Positions 19,206 to 50,465 of a stretch of DNA of 64,000 nt are shown here, one piece after another. The position numbers and the translations under genes are program-made. The stretch is taken from contig DOTG01000004.1 in NCBI GenBank assembly GCA_003512955.1, forward strand, positions 54,087-118,086. The letters run 5' to 3'. Under the pieces are notes generated by a model. It did no database searches and was not told the origin of the DNA. It was given only the letters and a program-made list of their open reading frames with translations. Numbering within the stretch: position 1 is the stretch's first letter; each line of letters opens with the position of its first letter. This DNA is from Marinilabiliales bacterium. Its GTDB lineage: Bacteria; Bacteroidota; Bacteroidia; Bacteroidales; SZUA-534.

Positions 19206-19209
19206 TTTG

Positions 19210-30989: not shown

Positions 30990-31193
30990 ATCACCAAATT
31001 GGGGAGATATATACGTAAAAACTGAGTTTCTATAATTGTTGGGGCACAAAAGCAGCAAGACCACGGAGGTTTACACACATGTAATAGCAGTAAACAATAA
31101 AAAATGCGCAACCCATTGGATATATTGATGAATAAAATTACTTTGGAAAACGGATTAAAAAAAACAGTTGTAAACAAAACCGATATATACTGA
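30990..31193 (+). pseudogene. Decayed 3' remnant of a tyrosine recombinase/integrase
   Basis: From 31036 the + strand reads LLGHKSSKTTEVYTHV, the box II region, with the catalytic-Tyr codon at 31072-31074. It is preceded by an in-frame TAA at 31033-31035. After the A-run at 31099-31104 a frame shift restores MRNPLDILMNKITLEN... up to the stop at 31191-31193. Upstream similarity (GDIYVKTEFL vs D.RYIQELL) is degenerate, and no N-terminal two-thirds of the gene exists. Confidence 0.6.
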
Positions 31194-31355
31194 ATAGAAG
31201 AGGGGAGGTAGGTATATAGGGATGTTGTGTTTCATGCTAAAAGAGACCGTGCAAATAACGCCAACGCACATTTGGCACATTTGCAAGCTCGAACACATAG
31301 GCTGCTGCTTCAGCTTGCAAAAGAGCCGAATTTTAGCCGACGCACATAGAGATAA

Positions 31356-31362
31356 GTTAAAT
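31356..31362 (+). other. Candidate first recombination core GTTAAAT (GTTRRRY), possibly attI-associated
   Basis: This is a perfect GTTRRRY heptamer 10 bp upstream of the first cassette ATG. The 31264-31350 region upstream has direct repeats GCCAACGCACAT / GCCGACGCACAT and a 9-bp palindrome pair TTGCAAGCT...AGCTTGCAA, rather than attC-type inverted ends. Confidence 0.3.
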
Positions 31363-31371
31363 TAGAAAAAA

Positions 31372-34300
31372 ATGGATCCTATTTCACTGACTATTCTAAC
31401 ATATGTTTCTTTAAAATTTCTTGATCAATTTTTAAAGGAAGAAGGATATGGAAGAATAAAAAAATGGCTTTTCCCAATAAGAAAGTATAGTAATCAATTA
31501 GCCATCGTTATATCTAAAACGATTCAAGAATATGAAAAGGATCACCCTTTCAAATCTGAGGGTAATAAATTTCCGTTTTATCATTCGCAAATTCTTTTTG
31601 AAGAATTGAATAAGTATATTCTTTTTAAGACTGTATATTCAAATCAACAGTTATTATTGAAGTTTAAAGAAAATTCTAACATAATATTACCGTCAACAAA
31701 AGAGTTAAATGAGTTTTATGATAGATTAGTAACTAATATTAATAATGACAAGCTATTAAAAGTTTTATTTATAGAAGAAAACTATAAGTCAAAAATCTTC
31801 GATATTCATGAATCTATTATAAATATAGAGAACAAAATATCCTCACTTAATGAACAAGTTGTATTTAATCCTAATAATGAGTGGTTTCAAAGGCAGTGTG
31901 AAGCATCTATTTTAGATTTAGGAAATAGATATACACCTGAATTAAATTTCAAACTGGAAGTTTCAGATATTTTTGAGGGAATTGGAAGGACAAAAAAATT
32001 TCAAAAATCATTTACTGAAAAGATTGATAGTTTACTTATATCTGGAAAAAAAGTTTTAAAAGATATTCCTCAAATAAAAGAACATATATTGCTCTTGGAA
32101 AAGTTCTTTGACGATATTTTAGAATTATATAACAAAACGACATTTTCAGGTATTCAAGCCCTTCCTTCTAAAGAATTTCAGGAACTTATTGAAGATGCCA
32201 AAAAAACAACTGAAATAATTCAAGAATTTTATCAAGATGAAGAAAGAAAAATCCAAAAAGAAAAAAATGATTATCAGTTCTACCATAAATACGGATATGA
32301 GATTAAAAATCTTAGAGAATTTGATAACAGACTTTCAAAATTCGGGCATTTTATAAATGGGAATTCTGTTAAATTAGCAAATAACCCATACCTAGTTTTA
32401 GATGGTGAAGCTGGTATTGGGAAGTCACATATGCTCGGAGATGTAATTTCAGTTCGTACTCAATTTAATTATCAAAGTATATTTCTGTTAGGACAGCATT
32501 TTGTTTCCGAGGAAGATCCTTGGACGCAGATATTTAAGAGACTTCAAATTAATTCAAAGTCAAATGATTTTTTGCAGAAATTAAATGAATTTGGAAAAAC
32601 ATCTAATAAAAGAGTTTTAATCATTATTGATGCTATAAATGAAGGAAAGGGCAAAAAGTGTTGGCCAAATTTTATAAATAGTTTTATTAAAGAGATAAAA
32701 TCCTATGAATGGCTTGGATTAGTTTTATCTATACGTACATCCTATAAGAACTTGATTTTTCCCAAAGATCAAATAGAAACTATGGGTGTAATAGAGCAGA
32801 CTTTGTACGGTTTTAGAAGTGTTGAATATGAAGCAAGTAAATTGTTTTTTGACAATTACAACATCGAACAACCAAATATTCCTTTATTACATCCCGAATT
32901 TCAAAACCCACTATTCTTAAAATTATTTTGTGATAGTTTAAATAAGTCTGGATTAACACGGATTCCAGATGGTTTACAAGGTATATCATCAATTATTAAT
33001 TTTTTTATTAATAGCATTAACTTAAAACTTGCAAATCCCAATAGACTTGATTATTCGGAAAGAATAAATCTTGTAAAGAAATCTGTTGAGAGTATCATTT
33101 TATTTAAGGTTGAAAATAAAGCCAGATATGTGCCATATGAAAAAGCATATGAGATTGTAGAAGATGAAGTATCAAAATTTATTAACACAAAAGGTTTCTT
33201 AGATGAATTAATTAGAGAAGGTATTTTCTCGTTAAATCTTTTCTGGAATCCAGATAAGAAGCCTGAAGATGGTATATATCTAGCATATGAAAGATTTGAA
33301 GATCATTTAATGGCTCAGTATTTAATCGAAAAATATCCAAAGTTAGAAGAAGAATTTGGGGCTGAAGGACAATTACATGACTATATAAAAGATGAACGAG
33401 CAATTAATATAAATCGAGGACTTATAGATGCTTTTTCAATACAAATTCCTGAAGTTACGGGTAAAGATTTCTTCAATTTTGTCCCAACATATAAAGATAA
33501 TTATACTATAATTGAATCCTTTGTAGAAAGCTTACTTTGGAGGAAAATTGAAACAATCACTGATGAATCCAGAGATTATGTCAATGAATATGTTTTTCTT
33601 TATCAAGGAACTCATGACTTTTTCTGGGAAACAATTCTAGCAATCACTGCAATACCAAATCATTACTTCAATGCGTATTCTCTGCATAACCATTTAATGA
33701 AATTCTCATTGTCAGACCGAGATGCAGGTTGGACACAATCCTTAAAATATAAATACAGTGATGAATCAACAGTTAAAAGACTTATAGATTGGGCTTGGAG
33801 TAATAACGATAAATCACATATTTCAGATGAATCAATAAAACTGTCATGTATTGCCCTAGCATGGTTTCATACTACTACTAATCGACAACTTAGAGATTGT
33901 TCAACTAAAGCATTAGTTTCTTTACTTCAAACCAGGGTTCATATAATCATTGAATTACTAGAACTATTTGAAGGTGTAAATGATCCTTATGTATACGAAC
34001 GATTATATGCAGTGGCATATGGTTGTGCAGTACGTACTAACCAAATTGAGGAATTAACAAAACTTAGTGAGTATATTTTTAATTCAGTATTTAATAAAGA
34101 AAAAGTGTATCCCCATATTTTATTGAGAGACTATGCAAGAGGAGTTATTGAATATGCTCATTACAAAAAATGCACATTAGATTTTGATTTGGCGAAAATT
34201 AGACCACCATATAAAAGTCAGTGGCCAGAGATAATTCCTTCAGAGAAAGAACTAAAAGATAGATATGATAATTCTAAATATCGTCAAATTTGGAGTTCTG

Positions 34301-35853
34301 TTATGGGTTTTGGTGATTTTTCTAGATATACAATTGGAACCAATCACAATTTGTCTGAATGGTCAGGTTATCAGAAAAATCAAACGCCAATAGATCGTGA
34401 AAAATTATTTGATGATTTTAAATCACATTTATCAAGCAAACAGCAAAAACTTTTAGATCAGCTTGATCCTATCATTTCAGAGGAAAGTGATGAAGAATTT
34501 GATTTCGGTGACAGTAAAATCAGATTCAACGTTGCAGTTGGACGAAAAAGTGAAGAAGAACTTAATAAGATTCGTGCTGATTTTAAAAAGTCTCTTTCCC
34601 AAGAAAAACTTAAATATTATGAAGAGGAGGTGGAACCATACCTTGACCATAATCATAATATAATTAACACTGGTTTTCATTTTGATTTAAGAATAACGCA
34701 AAGATTAATTTTCTCTCGCGTCATTAGTCTTGGATGGAATCCTGAAATTCATGGAAATTTTGACGATGAAATAGGTACTGGAAGAGGGAGGTCAACTTAT
34801 CCGCATGAAAGAATTGGTAAAAAGTATCAATGGATAGCATATTATGAATATTTAGCAATGCTTTCTGATAATTTTATTAAGTATGAAAGATGGGGTTCAG
34901 ATAAACAACAGGAAGCCCCCTATCAAGGCCCCTGGGAACCATATGTTCGGGATATAGACCCAACAATGCTGATTCATAAAACAGGTAGCTACGAATCTGA
35001 TGACCCTGAAAAATTTTGGTGGTCAGATAGAAATAAATTTGACTGGCAATGTTCAAATGATGACTGGGTAAATAATTCAAATGTATTGCCAAAATTTGAA
35101 GATCTAATGCAAGTAAAAGACTCAAATAATGAAGAGTGGTTAATACTTGAAGGTTTTCCAAGTTGGTCTGAGCCAAAGAAAATTGGAGAAGAAAAGTGGG
35201 ATTATCCTCATAAAGAATTATGGTGTCATATAAGAAGTTATTTTGTAAAAGAAAATGATTTCGAATCTTTTAAAAATTGGGCTGTAAAACAAGATTTTAT
35301 GGGTAGATGGATGCCTGAAAGCACAGATAGATATGAAGTTTTTAGTAGAGAATATTACTGGTCACCTGCCCACAATTATTTCATGTCTGAATATTATGGC
35401 GGTGAAGAATGGAGAGATATTCATGATAATGAAACAGGAGTATTTATTGCTTCAGTCATGATACCAACAGAAGGATTTCTATGGGAAGAAGAATTTGATA
35501 AATCAAAAGAAGAAACTATTAGCTTTTTGAAACCGTGCCGTAATATTTTTGAAGGCATGAACTTGCAATATTCCGATCAAGAAGGAGCTTTTATTGATAA
35601 TACTGGAGAAATAATATGTTTTGCTACTAATGTTTATCACAATTCAAAATCACATCTAATTGTAAAGAAAGAGCCATTCATTAAATATTTAAAGAAAAAT
35701 GGGTTAAATATATTATGGACTGTATTGGGTGAAAAACAAGTAATTGGTGGTAGGACTTTTGAAAATGAATACAGTGGACGTTTGGAAATGAGTGGAGCCT
35801 TTTATCTTGATAATAATAAATTTTATGGGAAAATTAATACAAAAAACAGCTAA
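31372..35853 (+). CDS. Giant orphan P-loop NTPase (STAND-like), 1493 aa
   Basis: Single uninterrupted ORF. Walker A is LVLDGEAGIGKSHMLGD (GEAGIGKS at 32404-32427). Walker B-like is RVLIIIDAINEG (32614-32643). A STAND/NACHT-like PLFLKLFC segment follows. There is a ~340-aa helical N-terminal region and a ~900-aa C-terminal region with no catalytic motif I can recognise. Confidence 0.85.
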   Translation: MDPISLTILTYVSLKFLDQFLKEEGYGRIKKWLFPIRKYSNQLAIVISKTIQEYEKDHPFKSEGNKFPFYHSQILFEELNKYILFKTVYSNQQLLLKFKENSNIILPSTKELNEFYDRLVTNINNDKLLKVLFIEENYKSKIFDIHESIINIENKISSLNEQVVFNPNNEWFQRQCEASILDLGNRYTPELNFKLEVSDIFEGIGRTKKFQKSFTEKIDSLLISGKKVLKDIPQIKEHILLLEKFFDDILELYNKTTFSGIQALPSKEFQELIEDAKKTTEIIQEFYQDEERKIQKEKNDYQFYHKYGYEIKNLREFDNRLSKFGHFINGNSVKLANNPYLVLDGEAGIGKSHMLGDVISVRTQFNYQSIFLLGQHFVSEEDPWTQIFKRLQINSKSNDFLQKLNEFGKTSNKRVLIIIDAINEGKGKKCWPNFINSFIKEIKSYEWLGLVLSIRTSYKNLIFPKDQIETMGVIEQTLYGFRSVEYEASKLFFDNYNIEQPNIPLLHPEFQNPLFLKLFCDSLNKSGLTRIPDGLQGISSIINFFINSINLKLANPNRLDYSERINLVKKSVESIILFKVENKARYVPYEKAYEIVEDEVSKFINTKGFLDELIREGIFSLNLFWNPDKKPEDGIYLAYERFEDHLMAQYLIEKYPKLEEEFGAEGQLHDYIKDERAININRGLIDAFSIQIPEVTGKDFFNFVPTYKDNYTIIESFVESLLWRKIETITDESRDYVNEYVFLYQGTHDFFWETILAITAIPNHYFNAYSLHNHLMKFSLSDRDAGWTQSLKYKYSDESTVKRLIDWAWSNNDKSHISDESIKLSCIALAWFHTTTNRQLRDCSTKALVSLLQTRVHIIIELLELFEGVNDPYVYERLYAVAYGCAVRTNQIEELTKLSEYIFNSVFNKEKVYPHILLRDYARGVIEYAHYKKCTLDFDLAKIRPPYKSQWPEIIPSEKELKDRYDNSKYRQIWSSVMGFGDFSRYTIGTNHNLSEWSGYQKNQTPIDREKLFDDFKSHLSSKQQKLLDQLDPIISEESDEEFDFGDSKIRFNVAVGRKSEEELNKIRADFKKSLSQEKLKYYEEEVEPYLDHNHNIINTGFHFDLRITQRLIFSRVISLGWNPEIHGNFDDEIGTGRGRSTYPHERIGKKYQWIAYYEYLAMLSDNFIKYERWGSDKQQEAPYQGPWEPYVRDIDPTMLIHKTGSYESDDPEKFWWSDRNKFDWQCSNDDWVNNSNVLPKFEDLMQVKDSNNEEWLILEGFPSWSEPKKIGEEKWDYPHKELWCHIRSYFVKENDFESFKNWAVKQDFMGRWMPESTDRYEVFSREYYWSPAHNYFMSEYYGGEEWRDIHDNETGVFIASVMIPTEGFLWEEEFDKSKEETISFLKPCRNIFEGMNLQYSDQEGAFIDNTGEIICFATNVYHNSKSHLIVKKEPFIKYLKKNGLNILWTVLGEKQVIGGRTFENEYSGRLEMSGAFYLDNNKFYGKINTKNS

Positions 35854-35969
35854 TACTTCGCATCCATACACATTGCCAAGTCGCACAAAAGCCATCACAC
35901 AGCCCAAAACTTGTCAAAGAGTATGGCTGCCCAAATGCACGGACAGAAAGCAGAGAATAAAGCACGAAA

Positions 35970-36100
35970 ACACAACACGGTATATAAAACATTTGGCGGA
36001 AAGTGCTAATTTTAAGGGCAGTACATTTAATAAACTTTGCAACGGTTTGATAAGGAATCGCTTTGAAATGCCAAACGTTTCATATACCCATCCGTTGGCA
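35970..36100 (+). repeat. attC-like site 1
   Basis: The left end is ACACAAC and the right end is GTTGGCA. The inner arms ACGGTATATAAAACATTTGGC and GCCAAACGTTTCATATACCCATCC are imperfect inverted repeats. The central GATAAGGAATCGCTTTGAAATG is shared with site 4. Confidence 0.7.
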
Positions 36101-36132
36101 TTCATTGTAAAAGCACATATAAAAGATAGAAG

Positions 36133-36756
36133 GTGAAAATATTTTATAAGTATCTATTTGAAAAGGAGTGCCTAAGAATTGATAAAGAAGACCTGTTGAG
36201 TGCTTTTGAACAGAACTTTTATAGATCTGGGTGCTATCATAAAATGACAAGGAAGGAGAATGGACTTAACCTATACAATGATTTTCTTGACTTTAATTAT
36301 TTATATAAAATGGTTAGTCCTTGGAATCTTTGGAATGGCATAGGAGATATGAAAATTAGTATTATTCCGAATTTGTCTAATGAATCATATTTGATTAAAT
36401 TTTCAATATCCATACTTAGGTCATTAGTTTTTAATGCGTTAACTATTATTATATTCTGTATACTGTTGATTACTAATTATTCTTCAGAACTATTCTATTT
36501 TTTCATATTGTTCACCACAGTAGCAATCACATCATATTTCACAAAATATATCAGACATAACAGATTTTTCTCTAGAACAATTAAAATTGGAGACTTTTAT
36601 AAAGATCAAGTTGAAAAAAGTTACGATTGGGAATCTATTTTAAAGGAAAAAACAAATTCTGAATTAAAAGAGATTATTAAAGGAAATACAATTCTTCCAG
36701 ATATTGTTATTGATTTAGCAAAAAAGGAAATGGGACATCGAAACAGTAGGAATTAA
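36133..36756 (+). CDS. Hypothetical membrane protein (GTG start), single-gene cassette
   Basis: 207 aa with two central transmembrane helices (LVFNALTIIIFCILLI, FYFFILFTTVAITSYF). It starts 32 bp after attC 1 and ends 11 bp before attC 2. Confidence 0.5.
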   Translation: MKIFYKYLFEKECLRIDKEDLLSAFEQNFYRSGCYHKMTRKENGLNLYNDFLDFNYLYKMVSPWNLWNGIGDMKISIIPNLSNESYLIKFSISILRSLVFNALTIIIFCILLITNYSSELFYFFILFTTVAITSYFTKYIRHNRFFSRTIKIGDFYKDQVEKSYDWESILKEKTNSELKEIIKGNTILPDIVIDLAKKEMGHRNSRN

Positions 36757-36767
36757 ATAATAACTGG

Positions 36768-36896
36768 CTACAACACCGCATATAAAGCATTTGCGGTCAA
36801 GTGCGGACTTCAAACTATGAATAAGAAATTAACTACATTAGTAACCCGAAATGGAGTGCAAGCAAGCGCAACCGCTTCATATGCGAAACGTTAGCG
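36768..36896 (+). repeat. attC-like site 2
   Basis: The left end is CTACAAC and the right end is GTTAGCG. Inner arms are ACCGCATATAAAGC (36775-36788) and GCTTCATATGCG (36874-36885). It is a close paralogue of site 5. Confidence 0.75.
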
Positions 36897-37006
36897 GCAA
36901 GATGAAGAAAAACGACACAGCAAGACAAATACGAACGACATTGAACAGATGAATTTTAGTTGACAAAGACTATGGTTATTTAAAAACACTATAAACCGAC
37001 CATTAA

Positions 37007-37044
37007 ATTCCTAAAAGTATTTATTTTTAAACAGTTTTAGGAAT
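37007..37044. promoter_or_regulatory. Inverted repeat ATTCCTAAAA-N18-TTTTAGGAAT upstream of the DUF4143 ATPase gene
   Basis: Perfect 10-bp arms at 37007-37016 and 37035-37044, 19 bp before the ATG. A Bacteroidota -7-like TATCTTTG (TAnnTTTG) follows at 37051-37058. Confidence 0.4.
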
Positions 37045-37062
37045 TTTATTTATCTTTGCCCT

Positions 37063-38280
37063 ATGCAAACAATAGCACGTAAACGGTACTTAGAAACACT
37101 TAGTGTTCTTAAAGACAAGAATTTAATTAAAGTTGCCACAGGCGTTAGACGTTGTGGAAAATCAACTTTAATGACACAATTTCAAGACTTGTTGCGTAAA
37201 GATAACGGCAAAGTTTCCATTTTGGCAATCAATATGGATATGCCCGATTTTAGGTTTTTAGCAGAAAAAAATTGGAAGGAGATTTATGATTACATCATTA
37301 AGCATCTCAAAAAAAACGTAACCAATTATGTGTTTATAGACGAAGTGCAAAATGTTCCTGAATTTGAAAAACTGTTGGAAGGCTTATACGTTCACCCAAA
37401 CATAGATTTGTATGTTACAGGTTCCAACGCATTTTTATTATCAAGCGAATTGGCAACTTTGCTCACAGGTAGAGCTTATGAAATAAATGTATTGCCTTTT
37501 TCTTTTGCTGAATATTTAGAGTTCACGGGTAAAACCACAAACCCTGACCGTGCTTTTGCTGAATATGTGCGTACAGGTGGTTTCCCCGAAGCTGTAAGAC
37601 TTTCAGCAGAAGGAAATCATTTTGCAAATGAATATTTGCAAATGGTTTTTAAAAACATTTACGACAACGATATTTCTAAGCGCTATACTATTTATGCCGA
37701 AGAATCCTATCAGGAGGTTGTAAACTTCTTAATAGATTCAGTTGGTTCAAGTGTTTCAGCAGGGAACATTGCTAAAGTTTTAACGACAAACAAAAAGAAA
37801 ATTGACAACAAAACAGTGTCGAAGTACATTGATACTTTGGTTGAAGCCTATTTGTTTTACAAAGTAAACCGCTATGACATCAAAGGCAAACAACATTTGG
37901 CAACGCTGGAAAAATACTATTTGGTGGATTTAGGTTTTCGCAACGCATTACTTGGAAAAGAATTAGCAAGCGATGCAGGGCATTTACTTGAAAACATAAT
38001 TTATCTTGAGCTAAAACGCAGAAATAACCAAGTATGGATAGGAAAAACCAATAATTTAGAAGTTGATTTTGTTGTTCGCAACAACGAAGGTTTTACACAA
38101 TACATACAAGTTGCTCAAACAGTACAAAACGCAACGACTTTAGAACGTGAGTTAGCACCATTTGACAGTATTGCAGACCATCACGAAAAACTTTTAATTA
38201 CAATGGACTACGACACAGGGACATATAACGGAATTAAAAAAACAAACGCATTAGATTGGCTTACAAAGACCGAAAAATAA
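37063..38280 (+). CDS. AAA+ ATPase, AAA_14/DUF4143 family
   Basis: 405 aa. Walker A is GVRRCGKST and Walker B is YVFIDEVQNVPEF. The C-terminal part (YLVDLGFRNALLG...LENIIYLELKRR) is typical of DUF4143 proteins, from memory. Confidence 0.85.
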   Translation: MQTIARKRYLETLSVLKDKNLIKVATGVRRCGKSTLMTQFQDLLRKDNGKVSILAINMDMPDFRFLAEKNWKEIYDYIIKHLKKNVTNYVFIDEVQNVPEFEKLLEGLYVHPNIDLYVTGSNAFLLSSELATLLTGRAYEINVLPFSFAEYLEFTGKTTNPDRAFAEYVRTGGFPEAVRLSAEGNHFANEYLQMVFKNIYDNDISKRYTIYAEESYQEVVNFLIDSVGSSVSAGNIAKVLTTNKKKIDNKTVSKYIDTLVEAYLFYKVNRYDIKGKQHLATLEKYYLVDLGFRNALLGKELASDAGHLLENIIYLELKRRNNQVWIGKTNNLEVDFVVRNNEGFTQYIQVAQTVQNATTLERELAPFDSIADHHEKLLITMDYDTGTYNGIKKTNALDWLTKTEK

Positions 38281-38288
38281 GGGCGAAC

Positions 38289-38417
38289 CGATAACGCGGT
38301 ATAAAACATTGGGGTTTAAGTGGTTATTCGAGCATTCTGACCCGCATCAAGTTTGGTATAACTGGACAGGAAAGTAGCCCGCAATCCCCAACGATTTCAT
38401 ACACACATCCGTTGGCA
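38289..38417 (+). repeat. attC-like site 3
   Basis: The left end is CGATAAC and the right end is GTTGGCA. Inner arms are GCGGTATAAAACATTGGGG and CCCCAACGATTTCATACACACATCC. It is homologous to site 1. Confidence 0.7.
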
Positions 38418-38461
38418 ATAATTAGAAGGAACATCATCATAACTATAATATATATAATAAA

Positions 38462-39665: not shown

Positions 39666-39673
39666 CTAACTAT

Positions 39674-39803: not shown

Positions 39804-39826
39804 TTAATAATTAAAAAACATGAGAA

Positions 39827-40829: not shown

Positions 40830-40850
40830 AACATTTTAGAAACCTAATTT

Positions 40851-41678: not shown

Positions 41679-41703
41679 GTTTTATTAATTTAACTTAAAA
41701 ATC

Positions 41704-42315: not shown

Positions 42316-42320
42316 ATACC

Positions 42321-42623: not shown

Positions 42624-42627
42624 AATT

Positions 42628-43251: not shown

Positions 43252-43356
43252 TATTTTTTTAATACAGATAAAAAATTGATTATAAACAACGCCCAGCACA
43301 TAACATGCAACATTGTAAAAAGACAGCTTCGAACGATAAATAATTGAATTGAAATC

Positions 43357-43672
43357 ATGTTAGTCCTTAAAATAGATATTTTAAAATACATCAGTGACGA
43401 CCAACCCGGATTTGCTGAAGCCAGATTTAAAGATGCATGGGATAAAGAATTTATGGTTCATGATAAAGTTTCCCATTTTTACTAAAGAATATTTAGATTC
43501 TAATAGTAAATACCCTCAGCCTGGCATTATTGCTTGCTTGAAAATTAAAGAGTTTGTTGATAAGGATGGTCGAAGAATTATTACAATAAACACAGAGAAA
43601 CCTTGGGCTGTGGAAACTATTGATGGTATTTATCAATTTGATATTTTACCTAACCAATTAACAGAGATATAA
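43357..43672 (+). pseudogene. Small cassette gene interrupted by a +1 frameshift
   Basis: Frame 1 reads MLVLKIDILKYISDDQPGFAEARFKDAWDKEFMVHDKVSHFY* (43357-43485). Frame 2 continues as FPIFTKEYLDSNSKYPQPGIIACLKIKEF... to 43672. Removing one T from the T-run at 43469-43471 (GTTTCCC) gives a continuous ...VHDKVPIFTKEY... protein. Confidence 0.5.
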
Positions 43673-43695
43673 TTAGTAAGACTGATTTATGAAAT

Positions 43696-43977
43696 ATGAA
43701 ATATGAAATTGAAATAATGAAGCCTTTATTTAGACTTTTGTGGCTTCAGTCTGATAATTATAAATTGCCAATCCAAAATATGGGATATAATTTAATGGAA
43801 GTTGGAAAATTTACTGGTCGGACAAGAGATATTATTAAACATTACCTTGACTACTTAATTGACCAAGGATTTATGGAGCTTGTCTCAGAGAAACCTTTAT
43901 TGTATCAGTTTACAGATAAAGGAAGACTAATAAAAGGTATGGATGATATTGAAAAAATAATAAACAACGTTGCATAA
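43696..43977 (+). CDS. Hypothetical small protein (possible wHTH)
   Basis: 93-aa ORF. The segment TGRTRDIIKHYLDYLIDQGFMELVSEKPLLYQFTDKGR is winged-helix-like. Confidence 0.4.
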   Translation: MKYEIEIMKPLFRLLWLQSDNYKLPIQNMGYNLMEVGKFTGRTRDIIKHYLDYLIDQGFMELVSEKPLLYQFTDKGRLIKGMDDIEKIINNVA

Positions 43978-44013
43978 CACAGTGTATGCCATTTTAAGAC
44001 AACACAACAAACA

Positions 44014-44583
44014 ATGACAGAACTTGAAAAATACATACAAACTTATTTCGGTGTCAACAAAGACGACTTGACGAAAATCAGTTCGTTTTTCAAACCTTCG
44101 GCATTGAAAAAGGGCGACTATTTTCTCAAAACTGGTAGGCATTCCGACAGACTTGGTTTTGTTCAGTCAGGTATTATTAGAGAGTTCGTTTTCATTGACG
44201 ACAAAGAAGTAACAAAGTGGATTTCAACAAAAGGTTATTTTGCGGTGGACTTATCCAGTTTTATTTTTCAACTTCCTGCTCGTTGGAACATTCAGGCATT
44301 GACAGATTGTGAACTTTATATCATTGACAGCAAGGGTTATCAAAAAATTGGTCAAGTAATTCCTCGTTGGGCAGAATTAGAAAAACTATTTATAGCAAAG
44401 TGTTTTACTGTTTTGGAAGACAGAATTATTACGCATCTGTCAATGACAGCGGAAGAAAGATATAATCATCTTTTTAATTTTAATAAAGAATTGTTTAACC
44501 TAGTGCCTTTGCAATACTTGGCTTCAATGCTTGGTATGACACCTGAAACATTAAGCAGGTTAAGAAAAAAAGCGGCTGGCTGA
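44014..44583 (+). CDS. Crp/Fnr-family (cNMP-binding domain) transcriptional regulator
   Basis: 189 aa with a cNMP-binding beta-roll (KKGDYFLKTGRHSDRLGFVQSGIIREF) and a C-terminal HTH (LQYLASMLGMTPETLSRLRKK). Confidence 0.8.
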   Translation: MTELEKYIQTYFGVNKDDLTKISSFFKPSALKKGDYFLKTGRHSDRLGFVQSGIIREFVFIDDKEVTKWISTKGYFAVDLSSFIFQLPARWNIQALTDCELYIIDSKGYQKIGQVIPRWAELEKLFIAKCFTVLEDRIITHLSMTAEERYNHLFNFNKELFNLVPLQYLASMLGMTPETLSRLRKKAAG

Positions 44584-44656
44584 ACTTCTTGATTTTTGTC
44601 AAGAGCAAGCCTTGGTTTTGTGCAGACCTTTGTAAGGTTAATTAAAACAAAGGACA

Positions 44657-45169
44657 ATGTTTACAAAATCAATTTTACTAACCGCAATTAGCTTGGCAAT
44701 TTCAACTGGTTCATTTGCACAAAACAATTCAAAAATGAAAAGTATTAACAACAGCGCACCTGTAAAGTGCAGCAAGACAATCACTATTAATGCAAACAGC
44801 GAAAAAGTATGGGCTGTAATGACCAACATTAACAATTGGGCAACTTGGCAAACTGACATCAGTAAACCGAAGCTGAATGGAGAATTAAAGCCAGAAACAA
44901 CATTTGACTGGAAAACTGGTGGAGTAAAAATCCATTCAACACTTCATACCGTTGAACCATTTAAGAAATTGGGTTGGACGGGAAAAACATATGGTTTGTC
45001 TGCGGTACACAACTGGACATTGACTGAAACAAATGGACAAACAAATGTTTCGGTTGACGAAAGTATGGAAGGTTTTTTTGCAGGGCTTTTGAAAAAACCA
45101 TTCAGCAAAAACTTGGAAAAAGGTATGCAAAACTGGCTCGACTTATTGAAACAAGAATGTGAAAAGTAA
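44657..45169 (+). CDS. SRPBCC/START-like (polyketide cyclase family) protein with signal peptide
   Basis: 170 aa. The pattern ITINANSEKVWAVMTNINNWATWQTDI...WTGKTYGLSAVHNWTL is typical of SRPBCC domain proteins. Confidence 0.65.
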   Translation: MFTKSILLTAISLAISTGSFAQNNSKMKSINNSAPVKCSKTITINANSEKVWAVMTNINNWATWQTDISKPKLNGELKPETTFDWKTGGVKIHSTLHTVEPFKKLGWTGKTYGLSAVHNWTLTETNGQTNVSVDESMEGFFAGLLKKPFSKNLEKGMQNWLDLLKQECEK

Positions 45170-45245
45170 CACGAAACAAAGAAATACGGCATAAACAGCA
45201 CCTACCACGTTGGATGCAAGCCAGGAAAAGCCCTTTTCGATAGTT

Positions 45246-45257
45246 ATAAAGTGTAAA
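45246..45257 (+). repeat. 12-bp direct repeat ATAAAGTGTAAA, left copy
   Basis: Identical to 47291-47302. It lies in a sequence resembling an attC left arm (CGATAGTTATAAAGTGTAAAA vs site 3 CCGATAACGCGGTATAAAAC), 7 bp from the fabF stop. Confidence 0.6.
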
Positions 45258-45264
45258 AAAGTTA

Positions 45265-46509
45265 TTATTGATACTTTTTGAAGACCGTTGTTGTTGTATG
45301 GCCACCAAACCCAAAAGTATTATTTAAAGCAACAGAAATATCTTTGTGACAGGCCTTATTGGGTGTAAAATTTAATTGTTGATTTATGGTTGGGTCAATT
45401 TCATTTAGATTGATTGTCGGGGGTATTATATTGTGAACAATAGCTTTTACACAAGCAATGGATTCAATAGCACCTGCTGCCCCTAATAAATGACCAGTCA
45501 TTGATTTTGTTGCACTAATTTGTATTTGGTCTAACGATTGTCCAAAGACTTTTTCTATAGCCTTACACTCACTTATATCACCAATAGACGTTGATGTAGC
45601 GTGAGCATTAACATACGTAACATCATTTGCATTAATCCCCGCATCTTTTAATGCTCCTTCAATGGCTAATATTGCACCTAATCCCTCTGGGTGTGTTGCT
45701 GCTACATGATATGCATCAGATGCAGATCCATATCCAGCTAACTCACAGTAGATTTTAGCACCCCTGTTAATTGCGTGTTCCCGTTCTTCAATCATTAATA
45801 CTCCCGCACCTTCACCTAAAACAAAGCCATCCCGGTTTTTATCAAATGGGCGCGATGCAGTTTCAGGTGATTCGTTCAATGTAGATAATGCTTTCATGGA
45901 ATTAAATCCCCCAACTGCAGCCTGTGTTATTGTGGCTTCGGAACCACCTGCTAAAACAATGTCGGCCCTTCCTAATCGAATAATATCAAGTGCATTGGCT
46001 ATTGCATTATTAGATGCTGCACATGCTGAAGTTATAGCATAACTAATTCCATGCAATCCATAACGAATAGAAATTTGTCCGCTAGCGATATTTGATATCA
46101 TTTTTGTTATAAAAAATGGATTAAATCTGGGAGTTTTATGGTTCTCTCCGAAACTTAGAAGTTCCTCTTCAAATGTTTGCATGCCGCCAATTCCAGTCGC
46201 CATTATAACTCCAATTCTATTGCGGTTACAAGTATTTAAGTCAATCTTTGAGTCATTCAAACATTCGTCAGTGGCGGCTAAAGCATATAGCGTAAATAGG
46301 TCCATTTTACGAGCTTCTTGCTTATCTAAATATTGTAAAGGGTTAAATCCTTTTACTTCACAAGCGAATTTTGTTTTATGTTTGGTGGTATCAAATTTGG
46401 TAATTGAACTTGCACCACTTTTCCCACTTATAAGATTTCCCCAAAAATCATTTACATTATTGCCTATCGGAGTTATTGCCCCAAGGCCAGTGATTACCGC
46501 TCTTTTCAT
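45265..46509 (-). CDS. fabF: Beta-ketoacyl-ACP synthase II
   Basis: 414 aa. The KAS II blocks are complete: the active-site Cys region AITSACAASNNAI, then NAHATSTSIGD and GHLLGAAG. It is oriented opposite to the cassette array. Confidence 0.9.
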   Translation of the reverse strand: MKRAVITGLGAITPIGNNVNDFWGNLISGKSGASSITKFDTTKHKTKFACEVKGFNPLQYLDKQEARKMDLFTLYALAATDECLNDSKIDLNTCNRNRIGVIMATGIGGMQTFEEELLSFGENHKTPRFNPFFITKMISNIASGQISIRYGLHGISYAITSACAASNNAIANALDIIRLGRADIVLAGGSEATITQAAVGGFNSMKALSTLNESPETASRPFDKNRDGFVLGEGAGVLMIEEREHAINRGAKIYCELAGYGSASDAYHVAATHPEGLGAILAIEGALKDAGINANDVTYVNAHATSTSIGDISECKAIEKVFGQSLDQIQISATKSMTGHLLGAAGAIESIACVKAIVHNIIPPTINLNEIDPTINQQLNFTPNKACHKDISVALNNTFGFGGHTTTTVFKKYQ

Positions 46510-46545
46510 AATTATTTATTTAAAATGATAAAATGTTTCAAAATA

Positions 46546-46565
46546 TACTTACTAATAAGTAAGTA
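46546..46565. promoter_or_regulatory. Palindromic operator-like site TACTTACTAATAAGTAAGTA between tetR and fabF
   Basis: Perfect 8-bp arms TACTTACT/AGTAAGTA. The same motif occurs at 47165-47184. Confidence 0.55.
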
Positions 46566-46580
46566 GTATGTGTAAAATTT

Positions 46581-47159
46581 TTATGGTTTTAAATCATCAA
46601 GAATTGATTGTTGCAAGCACTTATAATCAATTTTTTCCATTATTCCGGTTAATTGAAGGCTTGCAACTAAACTAGAGAAGATAATTAAAGCTTTACTATC
46701 CGGCGCATCTTTAAATGCAAAAACCTCATTATTCCGTCCCCGGTCAAGAAGTTCCGTTAACCATTTTAATATCATCTCAATCATTTTTTTTAGCTCTACT
46801 TTTGTGGTCTCGTTTAAAGTGTTATAATCAGGACTTAACGAACCAACCAAACATTTTTTATGTTCACGGTAACTTTTAACATAAATTTTAATGAACGTTT
46901 CAAGTTGTTGCCATTCATTAAACTTTCTGTTAACCATATTATCAACCATCTCTTCAAAGCGTTGAATATTAGTTTTAACGATGCTGGTTCCCAGGTTCTC
47001 TTTCGATGGAAAATAATAGTGGACGGCTGCATTTTTTATTCCTAATTCCGAAGATATGTCCTGGTAACTGAAAGCGTTGTACCCTTTGGTGCGGATAAGG
47101 TTTTCTCCTAATTCTAATATTTTTTCTCTTGTTACTGACATTTTGCAAAATTTTGACAC
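46581..47159 (-). CDS. TetR/AcrR-family transcriptional regulator
   Basis: 192 aa. The N-terminal HTH is GYNAFSYQDISSELGIKNAAVHYYFPSKENL. It lies directly upstream of, and co-oriented with, fabF. Confidence 0.85.
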   Translation of the reverse strand: MSKFCKMSVTREKILELGENLIRTKGYNAFSYQDISSELGIKNAAVHYYFPSKENLGTSIVKTNIQRFEEMVDNMVNRKFNEWQQLETFIKIYVKSYREHKKCLVGSLSPDYNTLNETTKVELKKMIEMILKWLTELLDRGRNNEVFAFKDAPDSKALIIFSSLVASLQLTGIMEKIDYKCLQQSILDDLKP

Positions 47160-47164
47160 AAATA

Positions 47165-47184
47165 TACTTACTAATTAGTAAGTA
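47165..47184. promoter_or_regulatory. Perfect 20-bp palindrome TACTTACTAATTAGTAAGTA upstream of tetR
   Basis: Perfect 10-bp arms, 6 bp upstream of the annotated tetR start codon. Confidence 0.6.
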
Positions 47185-47285
47185 AAAAATATTTCTTTAT
47201 TTTTTATTTGTTAACTTCGGGTCACATTTTGGAAAAATTCTATGATAGGTTTAACTACATTTGGGCAAAAAGAAAAAAGGCCTGT

Positions 47286-47405
47286 TGCTAATAAAGTGTA
47301 AATACCTTGCGGGTTTTAGGTGGTTATCCAGGGAGGCACCGCCTGCAAAACCGGATAAGTGAAAAGCTCCGCAATTCTTACGGTACATAGCCTCGGTCGT
47401 TGTAT
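47286..47405 (+). repeat. attC-like site 7 (degenerate left end)
   Basis: The body aligns with site 3 (TTGCGGGTTTTAGGTGGTTATCCAG vs ATTGGGGTTTAAGTGGTTATTCGAG; CCGCAATTC... vs CCGCAATCC...). The right end is GTTGTAT at 47399-47405. The left end is GCTAATA instead of ...AAC. Confidence 0.5.
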
Positions 47406-47490
47406 GCCAGAAACCAGCCCGATAATCCAACGTAAAAAAGATTTTAAATTTCTTATGTAAATTAAAAAATTGAAGAATATTTTCACTATG

Positions 47491-47526
47491 TTTACAAAAT
47501 GCAAGCAATTGCTTGCATTTTGTAAA
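47491..47526. promoter_or_regulatory. Perfect 36-bp palindrome TTTACAAAATGCAAGCAA|TTGCTTGCATTTTGTAAA (TetR operator candidate)
   Basis: Both 18-bp halves are exact reverse complements. The site ends 9 bp before the ATG at 47536. Confidence 0.7.
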
Positions 47527-47535
47527 CAATAATTT

Positions 47536-47901
47536 ATGGAATGGTACATACCTATATCGCTTTTACCTGGAATTGCTTTAATAATTCTTTCTACGAGCAA
47601 TTTTATTATAGCATTAAACAATGAAATAAAGGAATTGAAAAGTAACTATGATTTGTACGAGAAAATAATCAACTTGAAAATCATTCAATTAAAACGACTC
47701 AGCATTGCTATTAGTGGCTTGTATATAAGTGTACTATTATTTACTCTAACAGGTCTATTGAGTTGGTTTTCAGCTCTAAAGCCAGTTATTTTTAGCTCGC
47801 TTATTTTTTCAATGACATGTATGTTTTTTTCAGTAACCTTCCTTATTTCATTTGCAGTTAGGGCAATTAAAATTAGACATTTACATTTAAAAATTCATTA
47901 A
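47536..47901 (+). CDS. DUF2721-like small membrane protein
   Basis: 121 aa. WYIPISLLPGIALIILSTSNF, a coiled segment and two transmembrane helices. Family from memory. Confidence 0.6.
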   Translation: MEWYIPISLLPGIALIILSTSNFIIALNNEIKELKSNYDLYEKIINLKIIQLKRLSIAISGLYISVLLFTLTGLLSWFSALKPVIFSSLIFSMTCMFFSVTFLISFAVRAIKIRHLHLKIH

Positions 47902-47904
47902 TCA

Positions 47905-48456
47905 ATGGAATACTCAGACAAGGCATTAAATATTTTGGAAACTGCCAGAAAGCTTTTTTCACAGAAAGGTTTTAAAGCGGTAACAACACGGGAAATTGCA
48001 AAAGAAGCCAATGTGAATGAAGTTACAGTTTTTAGAATATTTCAGAGTAAAGAGATTCTATTTGAGCATGTAATCTCGCAAATGATTTTTAAGCCCAAAA
48101 TATCAGAATATATTGATGATAACGAGAAAGACCTAAACAAATATTTGAATGGAGTAGGTAATTTAATTCACACTATCATTTTAGAAAATATTGATTTATT
48201 TAAAATTGAATTGTCAGAGAATAAACGAATGCAAAATTTAAATTTAATTAACCGTTTTCCAAATGAGATAAAAGACAAAATGATTAAATATCTAATTAAC
48301 GTACAAAAGCAACCTGAAAAAGAAGCAATATTGTTCTCAATCTCTTTTATGACGGCAGTTCATGGGTTATGTATGAATTTGTATTTGATAAAAACATTTA
48401 CGCCTGCACCTGACTTCAAAGAGTGTTTAGATTTTATCATTAAGAAGTTCTATTAA
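47905..48456 (+). CDS. TetR/AcrR-family transcriptional regulator
   Basis: 183 aa. The HTH is GFKAVTTREIAKEANVNEVTVFRIFQSKEIL. Confidence 0.85.
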   Translation: MEYSDKALNILETARKLFSQKGFKAVTTREIAKEANVNEVTVFRIFQSKEILFEHVISQMIFKPKISEYIDDNEKDLNKYLNGVGNLIHTIILENIDLFKIELSENKRMQNLNLINRFPNEIKDKMIKYLINVQKQPEKEAILFSISFMTAVHGLCMNLYLIKTFTPAPDFKECLDFIIKKFY

Positions 48457-48462
48457 TTTTTT

Positions 48463-48490
48463 TTACAAGAAATGCAAGCAAGTGCATACA
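48463..48490. promoter_or_regulatory. Second, imperfect copy of the ACAAnAAATGCAAGCAA operator half-site
   Basis: TTACAAGAAATGCAAGCAAGTGCATACA shares the left half of the 36-bp palindrome. It sits between tetR and the Fe-S gene. Confidence 0.5.
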
Positions 48491-48508
48491 TTAAAAAATA
48501 AAAATATT

Positions 48509-49480
48509 ATGAATGAGTTGATTAAAAAGATGTTTCAAAATAACAATCAAAATACCCCAATGTATTTTGAAGCATTAACCGGACAATTAGGTCAGTTGTT
48601 AAAACGTAACGATATTGTTCGACATGGAAAAAATTCTGTGAAGCAAAATGGATTCGTCGGAAGCCCAATGGAAACTTTGCCATTGTTCAAAAAAATAACG
48701 ATGCTTCCCACCGGATTGCGTCTTTATCAGCAAATAAAAAAAAGTTTAACATTCCAACCCAATAAACCTTTTAAAGACAAAATCTGTGATATAGAGTTCA
48801 ATGAATTAAAAATATTTCTAGAAAGTTTGAATATAACAAGTTATGGTTTTACAAAAGTAAATAGTGATAATATTTTTATTGACAGGGGAATCCTTTATGA
48901 CAATGCAATAGTGATTTCAATTCAAATGCCACTTGAAAAAATTGCAAAAGCCCCAAGTTTTGAAACGATGGTAATGATTGAAGATACCTATTTGCAAACT
49001 GGTGAAATTGTCAATAAAATAGCTGGCTTTTTAAGAAAAAATGGATATGGTGCTCATGCAGGTCCGGGTTTAGGGGGCATGACAAATTACCCTATGCTGG
49101 CTAAAGATGCTAATATGGGTGAATTCGGCAGGCATGGTTTGCTAATTTCACCCGAAAGTGGAGCATGTCATCGTTTGGCAGCGGTATATACGAACATCAA
49201 TAATTTTCCGTATGAGAATACAAACGAACATCAATGGATTAAAGAGTATTGTCATAATTGTGGAATTTGCATTAAAAAATGTCCTAATAATGCGATTTTA
49301 GAGACACCTAAAACAACAATCAATACTCGTGTCAGACACATTGAATACGATAAGTGTATGTCCTGTTTCAATCAAAATTTTGGTTGCTCAGTGTGCATTA
49401 AAGTTTGCCCTTTTACTAAATCTGGATACGATAAATTACTTGAAGTACATTTAAAAAATCAAAGCAGAATCTTAAATTAA
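48509..49480 (+). CDS. 4Fe-4S dicluster-domain protein (reductive-dehalogenase/QueG-like architecture)
   Basis: ORF 48482..49480. The GTG at 48482 lies inside the operator-like site, so I prefer the ATG at 48509 (MNELIKK). It has two ferredoxin-type motifs, CHNCGICIKKCP and CSVCIKVCP. Confidence 0.65.
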   Translation: MNELIKKMFQNNNQNTPMYFEALTGQLGQLLKRNDIVRHGKNSVKQNGFVGSPMETLPLFKKITMLPTGLRLYQQIKKSLTFQPNKPFKDKICDIEFNELKIFLESLNITSYGFTKVNSDNIFIDRGILYDNAIVISIQMPLEKIAKAPSFETMVMIEDTYLQTGEIVNKIAGFLRKNGYGAHAGPGLGGMTNYPMLAKDANMGEFGRHGLLISPESGACHRLAAVYTNINNFPYENTNEHQWIKEYCHNCGICIKKCPNNAILETPKTTINTRVRHIEYDKCMSCFNQNFGCSVCIKVCPFTKSGYDKLLEVHLKNQSRILN

Positions 49481-49491
49481 TTAAAATAAAT

Positions 49492-50331
49492 ATGAACTCA
49501 TTTGACATTAACAGAGTACATTGGGAAAAGGGGAAATTCCAGCCTTGGTACCTAAACGAAAAACCAGTTAATTTAAAAGATTTGAATTACAATGGTGATG
49601 AAGAACTAATTGTTATCAACTTATCAGGTAAACAATACGGATTCTTGTTACGAGAAGTTGTTTATCATCACATTATACAAGGAAAATTAAACGATGTAGA
49701 TTTTATACTTACATTTTGTGGGGTTTGTAATGCTGGTGTATTATTAAGCCCTTTAATAAAAAACAAACTTTATCATTTCCGGGAAACCGGAGTATATAAT
49801 GGGCAGCAGGTTTTTGAAGACATAGAAACGCATACTTTGTGGAACCATTTAACCGGCGAAGCACTTTACGGAGAGCTTAAAGAAAACACGTTGGAGTATA
49901 TCGGTTCGCTAAACATGACAACAATTTCAGGAGTAAATAAAACTTTACCAGACTTGCCGATTTATATTTCAGGTAGAAAAAAGATTTATAGAAATATAAT
50001 GCGATTTGTTATCAAGGTTATTTTAGGTAAAAGGAATAAAAATTGGTTGCCGCCACATTTTCAAAAAACCTTACCCGAAGTTAGTAATGAATTACCTAAA
50101 ATGACAATGGGACTTGCTATAAAGATAAAAGATAAGCTACGGTTTTATCCTGCTGAATCTTTTAAAGAAAATGAACTTAGAGATGAATTTAATGGGACAA
50201 AAATTACCGTTAGAATTGAGAACAAAGTCCCTAAAGCAATCACAGAAACTGGTGAATATCCATTCCAATTATTTACCAGATGGTATGCTTTTATCTTAAC
50301 TTACCCAAATGGAGAACTATTTAAAGAATAA
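49492..50331 (+). CDS. DUF3179-like protein
   Basis: 279 aa. DIETHTLWNHLTGEALYGELKENTLEYIGS matches my recollection of the DUF3179 core (D..T.S.W...TGEA..G.L). Confidence 0.55.
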   Translation: MNSFDINRVHWEKGKFQPWYLNEKPVNLKDLNYNGDEELIVINLSGKQYGFLLREVVYHHIIQGKLNDVDFILTFCGVCNAGVLLSPLIKNKLYHFRETGVYNGQQVFEDIETHTLWNHLTGEALYGELKENTLEYIGSLNMTTISGVNKTLPDLPIYISGRKKIYRNIMRFVIKVILGKRNKNWLPPHFQKTLPEVSNELPKMTMGLAIKIKDKLRFYPAESFKENELRDEFNGTKITVRIENKVPKAITETGEYPFQLFTRWYAFILTYPNGELFKE

Positions 50332-50465
50332 CGTTACTTAATATCGCATATAAATCATTGTGAAATTGTCCGTTATGAAATATATCCATTTCGCATCGGC
50401 GTTTGTATCGGCGGATAGGAACAAAACCCGCAATCTACTACATTTTCCGCCTGCTATCGTTAGAA
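50326..50465 (+). repeat. attC-like site 8 (terminal)
   Basis: The left end GAATAAC overlaps the stop codon and the right end is GTTAGAA at 50459-50465. It has the family blocks ATCGCATATAAATC (cf. site 2) and CCCGCAATCTACTAC (cf. site 3), but arm complementarity is weaker than in sites 1-5. The core gene begins 6 bp later. Confidence 0.5.

Follow-up and report, generated by a model that had tools for sequence, protein, structure and literature searches.

What kind of system built the AT-rich gene island found on a contig of a Marinilabiliales bacterium (GenBank assembly GCA_003512955.1, contig DOTG01000004.1), and which enzyme would move its genes? We interrogated a stretch of 64,000 nucleotides of this contig (the window), in which G+C content is 31.8% at 31224-50465 and 42.0% and 41.3% in the two flanks. 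An earlier, sequence-only reading, whose two spot counts of base composition (15/60 and 30/60 G+C) are exact on recount, had taken the island for a chromosomal integron cassette array that has lost its integrase. The island proves to be a genuine array of mobile gene cassettes in the style of an integron. Further, we consider it probable (about 0.8) that window positions 30866-50465 are one of several integron-like cassette platforms in this genome, based on an insertion site (attI) and a tyrosine recombinase without the IntI-specific domain.

Eight elements of about 130 nt align as one family (aligned by L-INS-i and afterwards by covariance model), all on the + strand and all confined to the 19-kb island. 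The sequence-only reading had placed these elements, their end heptamers and their internal inverted repeats (36775/36874 and 39681/39772) at the right coordinates, except for two left ends: the heptamers quoted for sites 6 and 8 are present in the DNA, but the family alignment starts site 6 at 41413 (GCCCAAA) and site 8 at 50336 (ACTTAAT). The left-end triplet is AAC in sites 1-5 and AAA or AAT in sites 6-8. When run on the window, a hidden Markov model (HMM) built from 32 sites of other loci recovers exactly the eight sites, all on the + strand, with E values from 4e-31 to 3e-5 (site 7, 3e-5; site 8, 1e-6), and the next best match has E=0.68. A structure model gives sites 1 to 6 scores of 109.5, 90.8, 107.3, 93, 89.4 and 105.5 bits, a range of 89-110, compared with 9.1 bits for site 7 and 17.7 for site 8; decay affects sites 6-8, the distal third of the array. 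With filters off, the same model detects no further site between 41.5 and 47.3 kb. Sites 2, 3, 4, 5, 6 and 8 overlap the stop codon of the preceding + strand open reading frame (ORF) or begin 0-11 nt after it, so that the layout and the distances to the next ORF stand as first described while the count rises from five to six. In the plain sense of the term, the island is a CALIN (a group of clustered attC sites with no integron-integrase), with eight attC-type sites and no intact recombinase gene nearby. Rfam at gathering thresholds reports only tRNA in the window, and it holds no attC family.

The left border of the island is a conserved attI-type block joined to the decayed 3' end of a recombinase gene. 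This block carries direct repeats (GATATAT...GAATA), GGATATATTGATGAATA at 31118-31134 and CCGATATATACTGAATAG at 31180-31197, and a core, GGTATATAGGGATG/TT, in which the slash marks the crossover, between G31224 and T31225. Two other loci (L013 and L014; comparison loci are labelled L) were reached with a 66-aa remnant peptide, which matched only short remnant ORFs. They are different loci with a DNA block of ~170 bp in common, and their identity ends exactly at GGGATGTT. Scanning 25 nt of the block against a metagenome collection yielded 20 more loci; the block is present in all 20 and ends in 19 of them at TATAGGGATG/TT, with the sequence diverging at once. Overall, the block end is GGGATG/TT in 22 of 23 other loci, L037 being without the GTT, and at least 12 different sequences follow it, mostly fitting GTTRRRY. 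In iterated HMM searches of the window and the 23 loci, the attC-family sites lie downstream of attI and in the same orientation in 42/42 cases (137.6 kb searched downstream), and none is found in 116.5 kb upstream of attI in the 23 other loci, indicating that the sites are linked to attI blocks rather than scattered as a genome-wide repeat. One 472-kb contig bears an intact platform plus an orphan platform, and several attI platforms appear to coexist per genome, most with only a gene remnant.

The copies of the block also differ in how the adjacent gene is truncated. An identical truncation junction (TATAATTGTTGGGGCAC) precedes attI in the window (30866-31033), L020, L022-L026, L034, L037 and L038, and this window-type remnant is found in at least six different chromosomal contexts. 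Another truncation type is common to L014, L021, L029, L032, L033 and L035. In an alignment of 12 loci, the likeness of the window block to L022 and L024 begins near TTTAAAATTTG, and the window has ~85 bp additional between two AAAACTGAG repeats. The segment at 30866-31033 appears to consist of heavily decayed remains lying upstream of the recombinase remnant. At its left edge, the reverse complement of 30873-30904 resembles the left half of attC site 1 (24/32 nt) and may be a relic of an inverted attC. In L013 (4534-5882), an IS110-family transposase pair directly follows the attI junction of a truncated remnant, and is itself followed by an MmeI-type restriction-modification gene.

In integrons, crossover takes place between the G and TT of the right-end box R', and the first bases of a cassette belong, in its circular form, to its own attC and are paired there with the left-end box R''. 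The R'' of a site is therefore expected to complement the preceding site's R' rather than its own. Across 34 non-redundant neighbour pairs, 97 of 136 variable positions in the left ends agree with the reverse complement of the right end before them or of the attI junction, with 19 perfect pairs (P about 1e-29), whereas only 47 positions match when a site's left end is compared with its own right end. In the window, site 1 has the left end ACACAAC, exactly the reverse complement of GTTGTGT at 31224, and complementarity extends over 12/13 nt for cassette 4 and 11/13 nt for cassette 5. The left end of site 3 (CGATAAC) matches the preceding right end at 6/7 positions, and site 6 has GCCCAAA where GCCCAAC is expected. 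The rule also holds in 3/3 cases in the complete genome of Algoriphagus sp. AGSA1.

We then turned to the enzyme. The sequence-only reading had noticed a decayed tyrosine-recombinase 3' end at the left border, aimed into the array, and this remnant is confirmed. It reads LLGHKSSKTTEVYTHV..., has lost 1 nt from an A run (6 A vs 7), has its stop codon at 31191-31193 and aligns to the 3' end of intact 384-aa genes in L030, L039 and L042. In L028, L030, L036 and L039, the conserved block itself forms the 3' end of a gene that is intact, co-oriented and 363-388 aa long, and the intact genes end 31 bp before the G/TT crossover point. In five diverged lineages attI overlaps the 3' end of the recombinase gene, and the attI sequences have diverged along with the genes. 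Comparison of these loci shows a physical link between attI and the recombinase gene in several diverged lineages, and shows that orphan platforms keep attI. A protein identical to the 384-aa recombinase, HAM98827, belongs to the same NCBI accession series as the flank protein and the Avs2 of the window (HAM98632, HAM98633), and the metagenome-assembled genome 'Bacteroidetes bacterium GWC2_40_13' holds Avs2 together with a close partial variant of the recombinase (365 aa, same 90% cluster). These accessions and genome contents together indicate that the genome of the window very probably encodes an intact recombinase elsewhere, in trans to this locus.

A conserved small gene of 116-119 aa lies divergently and directly upstream of the intact recombinase in the three diverged loci L042 (9508-9858), L048 (9507-9866) and L050 (9576-9926), on the - strand in each. 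Its product carries an N-terminal CKICS...GRSDK.FCS.RCKNYYH motif that is zinc-ribbon-like, with only a faint Pfam match to PHD_Pygo, and may be an accessory factor or regulator of the recombinase.

The intact recombinase contains Phage_int_SAM_4 and Phage_integrase domains according to Pfam, and its sequence relates it to both IntI and XerA. Its best NCBIfam match is XerA_Arch, 'site-specific tyrosine recombinase/integron integrase' (NF040815), at 217.7 bits against a cut-off of 220, followed by the integron integrase model TIGR02249 at 198 bits against a cut-off of 265, a match split into two stretches. The XerC and XerD models score ~174 bits each, and PRK15417 scores 140 bits vs a cut-off of 435. 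When aligned with VchIntIA (2a3v), the recombinase has 14 residues (275-288) where the IntI chain has 57 (189-245), which indicates that the IntI-specific additional domain (I2 helix region) is absent. Consistent with this, an AlphaFold2 model (mean predicted local distance difference test score, 80) has no extra helix at the position of the IntI domain, and a 404-column alignment of 40 homologues contains no long insertion; the catalytic residues (R, K, H, R, H and Y) show no variation among the 40. The model does contain a confident additional N-terminal domain (residues 1-75) with the order beta-beta-alpha-beta-beta-alpha-beta. On its own, this domain has no Pfam match and draws 107 weak or fragmentary matches from 1.84 billion representatives, none of which gives a functional lead. 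Foldseek places XerA (5hxy, 4a8e) together with IntI4 (2a3v) in its top group.

These properties bear on the best-surviving alternative, namely that the island is an ordinary integron remnant in the CALIN sense, with standard attC sites and a canonical IntI elsewhere in the genome, and that the recombinase next to attI is an unrelated Xer-like neighbour. The array layout and the integron-type site architecture (R and L boxes, AAC...GTT, G/TT crossover) fit this explanation, as do the second-best score of the recombinase on the integron integrase model and the fact that the genome is only partly visible. Against it, the overlap of attI with this particular gene recurs across the five co-diverging lineages, and it is decayed remnants of the same gene that mark the orphan platforms. 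No canonical IntI appears in the fetched loci, as judged by gene lists and Pfam labels only and with no IntI-model screen. Further, the sites are without conserved extrahelical bases, the feature that is read by the IntI domain, and IntegronFinder surveys are near-empty for Bacteroidetes (PMC9024848). We regard this explanation as improbable. What stands of the loss of an integrase is the array and its status as a CALIN in the plain sense; only the local gene is gone, an intact attI is kept, and an enzyme encoded elsewhere is indicated. Likewise, the array shows the attI, attC and boundary logic of a classical integron derivative, and its cognate recombinase, being without the IntI-specific domain, is not a canonical IntI. 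Since both this domain and the conserved extrahelical bases are missing, we do not file the system as a canonical integron; we describe it as an integron-like variant whose recombinase falls between XerA and IntI.

To characterize site structure, we used sites 1-5 of the window and an alignment (A5) of 32 distinct sites, drawn from the window and from related loci. When folded as DNA, the bottom strand of sites 1-5 (the - strand of the window) forms a 4-5-bp R box and a long L stem, with an unpaired stretch of ~5 nt on the R' side vs ~2 nt on the R'' side. RNAalifold finds a 19-bp stem in A5, with compensatory changes in 17/19 pairs. Within this stem, 91.7% of cells are paired vs 63.7 +/- 1.4% in shuffled alignments, and two-sided changes occur in 159 cells vs 49.8 in shuffles; neither value is reached by any of 500 shuffles (0/500 each). 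Sliding the partner columns lowers pairing to 33-50%. Conserved G.T wobbles occupy two stem positions, in 25/32 and 28/32 sites, and the bottom strand has 69 G.T cells in all, against 6 for the top strand, where pairing is 81.3%. DNA folding energy is lower for the bottom strand in 25/33 sites (p=0.002), and in 27/33 when the arms alone are folded (p=2e-5). Pairing of the L arms is by this covariation under selection and biased towards the bottom strand, in agreement with the one-strand hairpin that the integron interpretation predicts. On one side the spacer measures 4-5 nt, on the other mostly 0-2 nt, and no base is conserved as extrahelical in A5, a bulged T being present in only 7/32 sites. 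The loop between the stem arms measures 71-73 nt in every site and carries conserved motifs, such as TTTCAGTGG... and GATAAGGAA..CCGCAAT on the top strand at window 36000-36070. A loop of fixed length that bears motifs suggests a further binding site or structure.

Could the elements instead recombine as double strands? In a second alternative, recombination is of the Xer/dif type, as in pdif modules, and uses short duplex cores with no folded strand, while the palindrome has another role, for instance as a terminator. The recombinase is indeed nearest to archaeal XerA in sequence and fold and is without the domain linked to single-strand recombination (PMC4792948), and the sites lie at gene 3' ends, where terminators would be. 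The 19-bp arms covary while their sequences differ among sites, though, which argues for selection on pairing and not on a duplex binding sequence. G.T wobbles are also 11-fold enriched on one strand, and this strand is antisense to the cassette genes, so that an mRNA would have A.C mismatches and a weaker hairpin, contrary to a terminator role; in addition, no T run follows the stems. Cassette-end complementarity and a single G/TT crossover point match the integron pathway instead. Double-strand recombination is accordingly less likely still than an ordinary integron remnant.

If cassettes are mobile, related loci should differ by whole units. One ORF-plus-attC unit of 1219 bp, located exactly at G/TT, is present in L032 and L021 and absent from L014, L035 and L033, within flanks that are 99% identical over 5.9 kb upstream and 98% over 4.7 kb downstream. 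The inserted unit reads ...GGGATG/TTATGGGC...355-aa ORF...GCCCATAAC-stem...stem-CAACCG/TTACCTGC..., and its R'' is the reverse complement of its own first nine bases. The states with and without the unit are each found in independent samples, and the distal junction has no repeat that could cause mis-assembly. Related loci do vary, then, at a cassette boundary. In three further pairs of loci (L022/L023, L024/L038 and L026/L034), upstream flanks are 97.8-99.6% identical and the arrays are unrelated. By comparison of loci, we conclude that crossover is at G/TT, that a cassette consists of one or more ORFs plus an attC, and that insertion is at attI. A third explanation, that REP-like (repetitive extragenic palindromic) or MITE-like (miniature inverted-repeat transposable element) dispersed repeats or terminators accumulated in an AT-rich island acquired otherwise, would account for palindromic, intergenic, repeated elements of ~130 nt, yet it is effectively refuted, and very unlikely, given the linkage to attI and uniform orientation described above, the absence of such elements from the 44 kb of window outside the island, complementarity between ends of neighbouring elements and not of the same element, and the insertion of ORF and element as a single unit at G/TT.

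Other elements, group II introns among them, are associated with the sites at several loci. A group II intron (RF02001, with its reverse transcriptase on the - strand) at 9790-11800 in L013 starts GTGCG at the R'' end of an opposite-strand attC, the same abutting placement as described for attC-specific group II introns (PMC3001079). Two Algoriphagus attC (L040, 13090-14913 and 17190 onward) end in ...AC/GTGTG and GTGGTG instead of GTT, one of them with a + strand reverse transcriptase gene after it. An ORF-less insert of 860 nt in L014 (13667-14526) splits an attC and has a weak Intron_gpII match (24.6 bits, E=0.024). A 139-bp segment, 98.6% identical between the unrelated arrays of L022 (~12115-12253, oriented) and L037 (~4453-4591), cuts attC within the L' arm and probably represents the end of a further mobile element targeting these sites.

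Several points weigh against the integron-like platform. Its support consists of comparative sequence data. Only parts of the genome are visible, and a canonical intI elsewhere in it is possible. The bottom-strand bias in folding is modest (1-2.4 kcal/mol) and largely due to the two conserved wobble positions. The three pairs with unrelated arrays could partly be assembly chimeras at the repeated attI block; for L022 and L023, a locus-specific variant near the junction argues against this. The array of the window itself shows no cassette variation among the population contigs examined (L001-L012), and so gives no sign of activity at this particular platform; the sole apparent array difference, seen in L004, was rejected as an NN scaffold gap. 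Lastly, the 5.9 kb at 41536-47399 have genes on both strands and no internal site, unlike a simple cassette.

The findings can be joined in a model in which the tyrosine recombinase would insert circular, mostly promoterless cassettes at attI, a site that overlaps the 3' end of the recombinase's own gene, with crossover between the G and TT of a GTT triplet. In integrons a Pc promoter drives the cassettes, and the promoters of Bacteroidota depart from the sigma-70 consensus. Each cassette would end in an attC-type site of ~130 nt whose bottom strand (the window - strand) is predicted to fold into a short R box, an asymmetric unpaired spacer (4-5 vs 0-2 nt), a 19-bp L stem with the two wobbles and the 71-73-nt loop. 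We infer that this recombinase would be the catalyst, acting in trans where needed, with the folded bottom strand as its substrate and circular intermediates. The extra N-terminal domain of ~85 aa may bind the attI direct repeats, and the asymmetric spacer and wobbles may set strand choice in place of extrahelical bases. That the IntI domain and extrahelical bases are missing together would fit one alternative mode of recognition. At the window locus, the adjacent recombinase gene would have been reduced to its decayed 3' end of ~160 bp. As attI and attC sites 1-5 look intact, this platform is probably served in trans by the 384-aa recombinase encoded elsewhere, whereas the distal sites 6-8 appear decayed and their cassettes fixed.

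The cargo of the array is, as the sequence-only reading had it, rich in defence-like and regulator-linked modules: Avs2, the candidate defence families PDC-S01 and PDC-M34A/B, two TetR regulators, a Crp-like regulator and an HTH_34 regulator. The distal block encodes a membrane protein, the HTH_34 regulator, a SecDF-P1-head protein (bearing a hydrophobic segment at its N-terminus), two small ORFs, the Crp-like regulator, an SRPBCC protein and, on the - strand, a FabF-like ketoacyl synthase and a TetR regulator; it represents either several fused cassettes or non-cassette DNA. The flanks of the island encode a PorV/PorQ-family protein and glsB, and these genes, with the source names, assign the organism to Bacteroidota (order Marinilabiliales). 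On the right, the array stops 6 bp before a core gene, as first described; this gene is glsB by NCBIfam assignment, on the - strand at 50471-51415, with its stop codon side facing the array. A scan of genome contigs with the left-flank protein, in search of an island-free relative for comparison, gave only L006 (Bacteroidales, 28% identity), a locus without an array.

Table 1. Coordinates of the features of the cassette platform in the window.
Feature	Positions	Strand	Evidence or remark
Left part of the conserved platform block preceding attI	30866..31033	+	Alignment of 12 loci; common to arrays at other chromosomal loci
Decayed tyrosine recombinase 3' end	31034..31193	+	LLGHKSSKTTEVYTHVIAVNNKK, frameshift, MRNPLDILMNKITLENGLKKTVVNKTDIY, stop; aligns with intact 384-aa genes
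attI-type site	31118..31226	+	Block kept in 23 other loci, likeness ends at GTT in 22
Cassette 1: Avs2 (ORF 31372-35853, 1493 aa) and attC site 1 (35970-36100)	31225..36094	+	NCBIfam Avs2 1755 bits, PADLOC Avs2 1628 bits
Cassette 2: 207-aa ORF without assigned function (36133-36756) and attC site 2 (36768-36896)	36095..36890	+	
Cassette 3: AAA_14/DUF4143 ATPase (37063-38280) and attC site 3 (38289-38417)	36891..38411	+	Candidate defence family PDC-S01
Cassette 4: DUF5343 protein (38462-39079), Swt1-like HEPN protein (39072-39665) and attC site 4 (39674-39803)	38412..39797	+	Candidate defence system PDC-M34A/B
Cassette 5: 290-aa ORF without assigned function, hydrophobic N-terminus (39827-40699) and attC site 5 (40700-40829)	39798..40823	+	
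Cassette 6: 184-aa ORF without assigned function (40851-41405) and attC site 6 (41413-41541)	40824..41535	+	
Distal block, no internal attC, ending in degenerate site 7 (47286-47405)	41536..47399	+	
Last unit: weak DUF2721-like, TetR, 4Fe-4S and DUF3179 proteins (47536-50331) and degenerate site 8 (50336-50465)	47400..50465	+	

We also examined how far the system extends beyond this genome. More than 100 homologues of the recombinase, at 54-85% identity and named XerD or tyrosine recombinase, occur in Marinilabiliales, Bacteroidales, Cytophagales and Algoriphagus. Every homologue locus examined (L042, L048, L050, L051 and L040; 55-100% identity) has a GTATA(N4-6)TG/TT core after the gene and co-oriented model matches downstream. 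The cultured Algoriphagus sp. AGSA1, whose genome is complete, carries the recombinase with an array in which one site scores 101.5 bits. In Algoriphagus (L051 1-11167, from Algoriphagus aquimarinus, and L040 9461-9814), the recombinase and cassettes directly follow CTnDOT-type conjugation genes (TraG, TraJ, TraM, DUF4138, DUF932 and RadC), and this platform may be carried on an integrative conjugative element. In L042, lipid-related genes, about ten and all co-oriented (TetR, MMPL, acyl carrier, acyltransferase, patatin, glycosyltransferase), make up the first ~9 kb after attI (11186-20148), where no attC is detected; the first sites lie at 20148 and 20743, and the stretch is either an unusually large cassette or one with lost sites.

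On balance, though with far less assurance than for the platform itself, we favour the view that Bacteroidota (Marinilabiliales, Bacteroidales and Cytophagales) harbour a widespread, undescribed integron lineage that would recombine without the I2 domain or extrahelical bases, with its own attC architecture (a 19-bp stem, G.T wobbles and a fixed length of ~130 nt), several orphan attI platforms per genome that are served in trans and, in Algoriphagus, a platform on a conjugative element. We found no description of this integron variant in the literature searched, whose coverage is incomplete, so that an earlier publication is possible. As the recombinase scores below the NCBIfam integron-integrase cut-offs, IntegronFinder would probably miss such elements. 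Integrons pass for rare in Bacteroidota, and IntegronFinder 2.0 reports one complete integron in Bacteroidetes, in Salinibacter (PMC9024848); if our view is right, integrons are not nearly absent from Bacteroidota, and integron biology would extend to a phylum of major importance in the environment and in the gut. Recombination of folded single-stranded attC is held to depend on the IntI-specific domain as the innovation that permits it (PMC4792948, PMC8138268), and the present system, with every genomic signature of integron recombination but a recombinase that lacks this domain, would offer a natural experiment in structure-specific recombination and strand choice without reading of extrahelical bases. 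Algoriphagus sp. AGSA1, with its intact platform, makes the system directly testable. The Avs2, PDC-S01 and PDC-M34 cargo accords with the recent view that chromosomal integrons store anti-phage defence systems, and the arrays would give a route to mining new defence genes in Bacteroidota.

Among known systems, the closest in layout are sedentary chromosomal integrons and CALINs, such as the Vibrio cholerae superintegron with its homogeneous VCR attC of ~125 nt, whose cassettes are likewise co-oriented, mostly single-gene and closely packed. The two have in common homogeneous long attC of the form R''-L''...L'-R' with AAC/GTT ends, crossover at G/TT and insertion at attI, and in both, structure is kept while sequence varies and the bottom strand folds better. 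Defence and toxin-like cargo (bioRxiv 10.1101/2024.07.02.601686) and attC-targeting group II introns (PMC3001079) are shared as well. Unlike in chromosomal integrons, the recombinase here lacks the IntI-specific domain and has an extra N-terminal domain, and two conserved G.T wobbles with a 4-5/0-2-nt spacer stand in place of extrahelical bases. The L stem here has 19 bp, and the loop keeps a length of 71-73 nt and carries conserved motifs, whereas the attC loops of classical integrons vary in length. The recombinase gene is also co-oriented with the cassettes and overlapped by attI at its 3' end, and several attI platforms appear per genome, most with only a gene remnant. A gene co-oriented with the cassettes and followed downstream by attI is found as well in 'inverted integrase' integrons such as that of Treponema denticola. 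The known integrases of that group keep the IntI additional domain and are recognised by IntegronFinder, in contrast to the present enzyme, which lies under the IntI model cut-off (198 vs 265 bits).

On the side of the enzyme, the nearest relative is archaeal XerA, both by NF040815 (217.7 bits vs a cut-off of 220) and by the best PDB matches (4a8e and 5hxy). Xer systems act on duplex sites of ~28 bp with two binding arms, whereas the sites here are structured palindromes of ~130 nt selected for pairing, and, unlike in Xer/pdif systems, the products are ordered cassette arrays beside a dedicated attI. Among simple tyrosine recombinases, the enzyme may be an insertion-less relative within the 'integron-like subgroup' (Smyshlyaev et al. 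2021, PMC8138268). For insertion-less members, that work gives no function or cassette array; here, such an enzyme is linked to attI, attC and cassette turnover.

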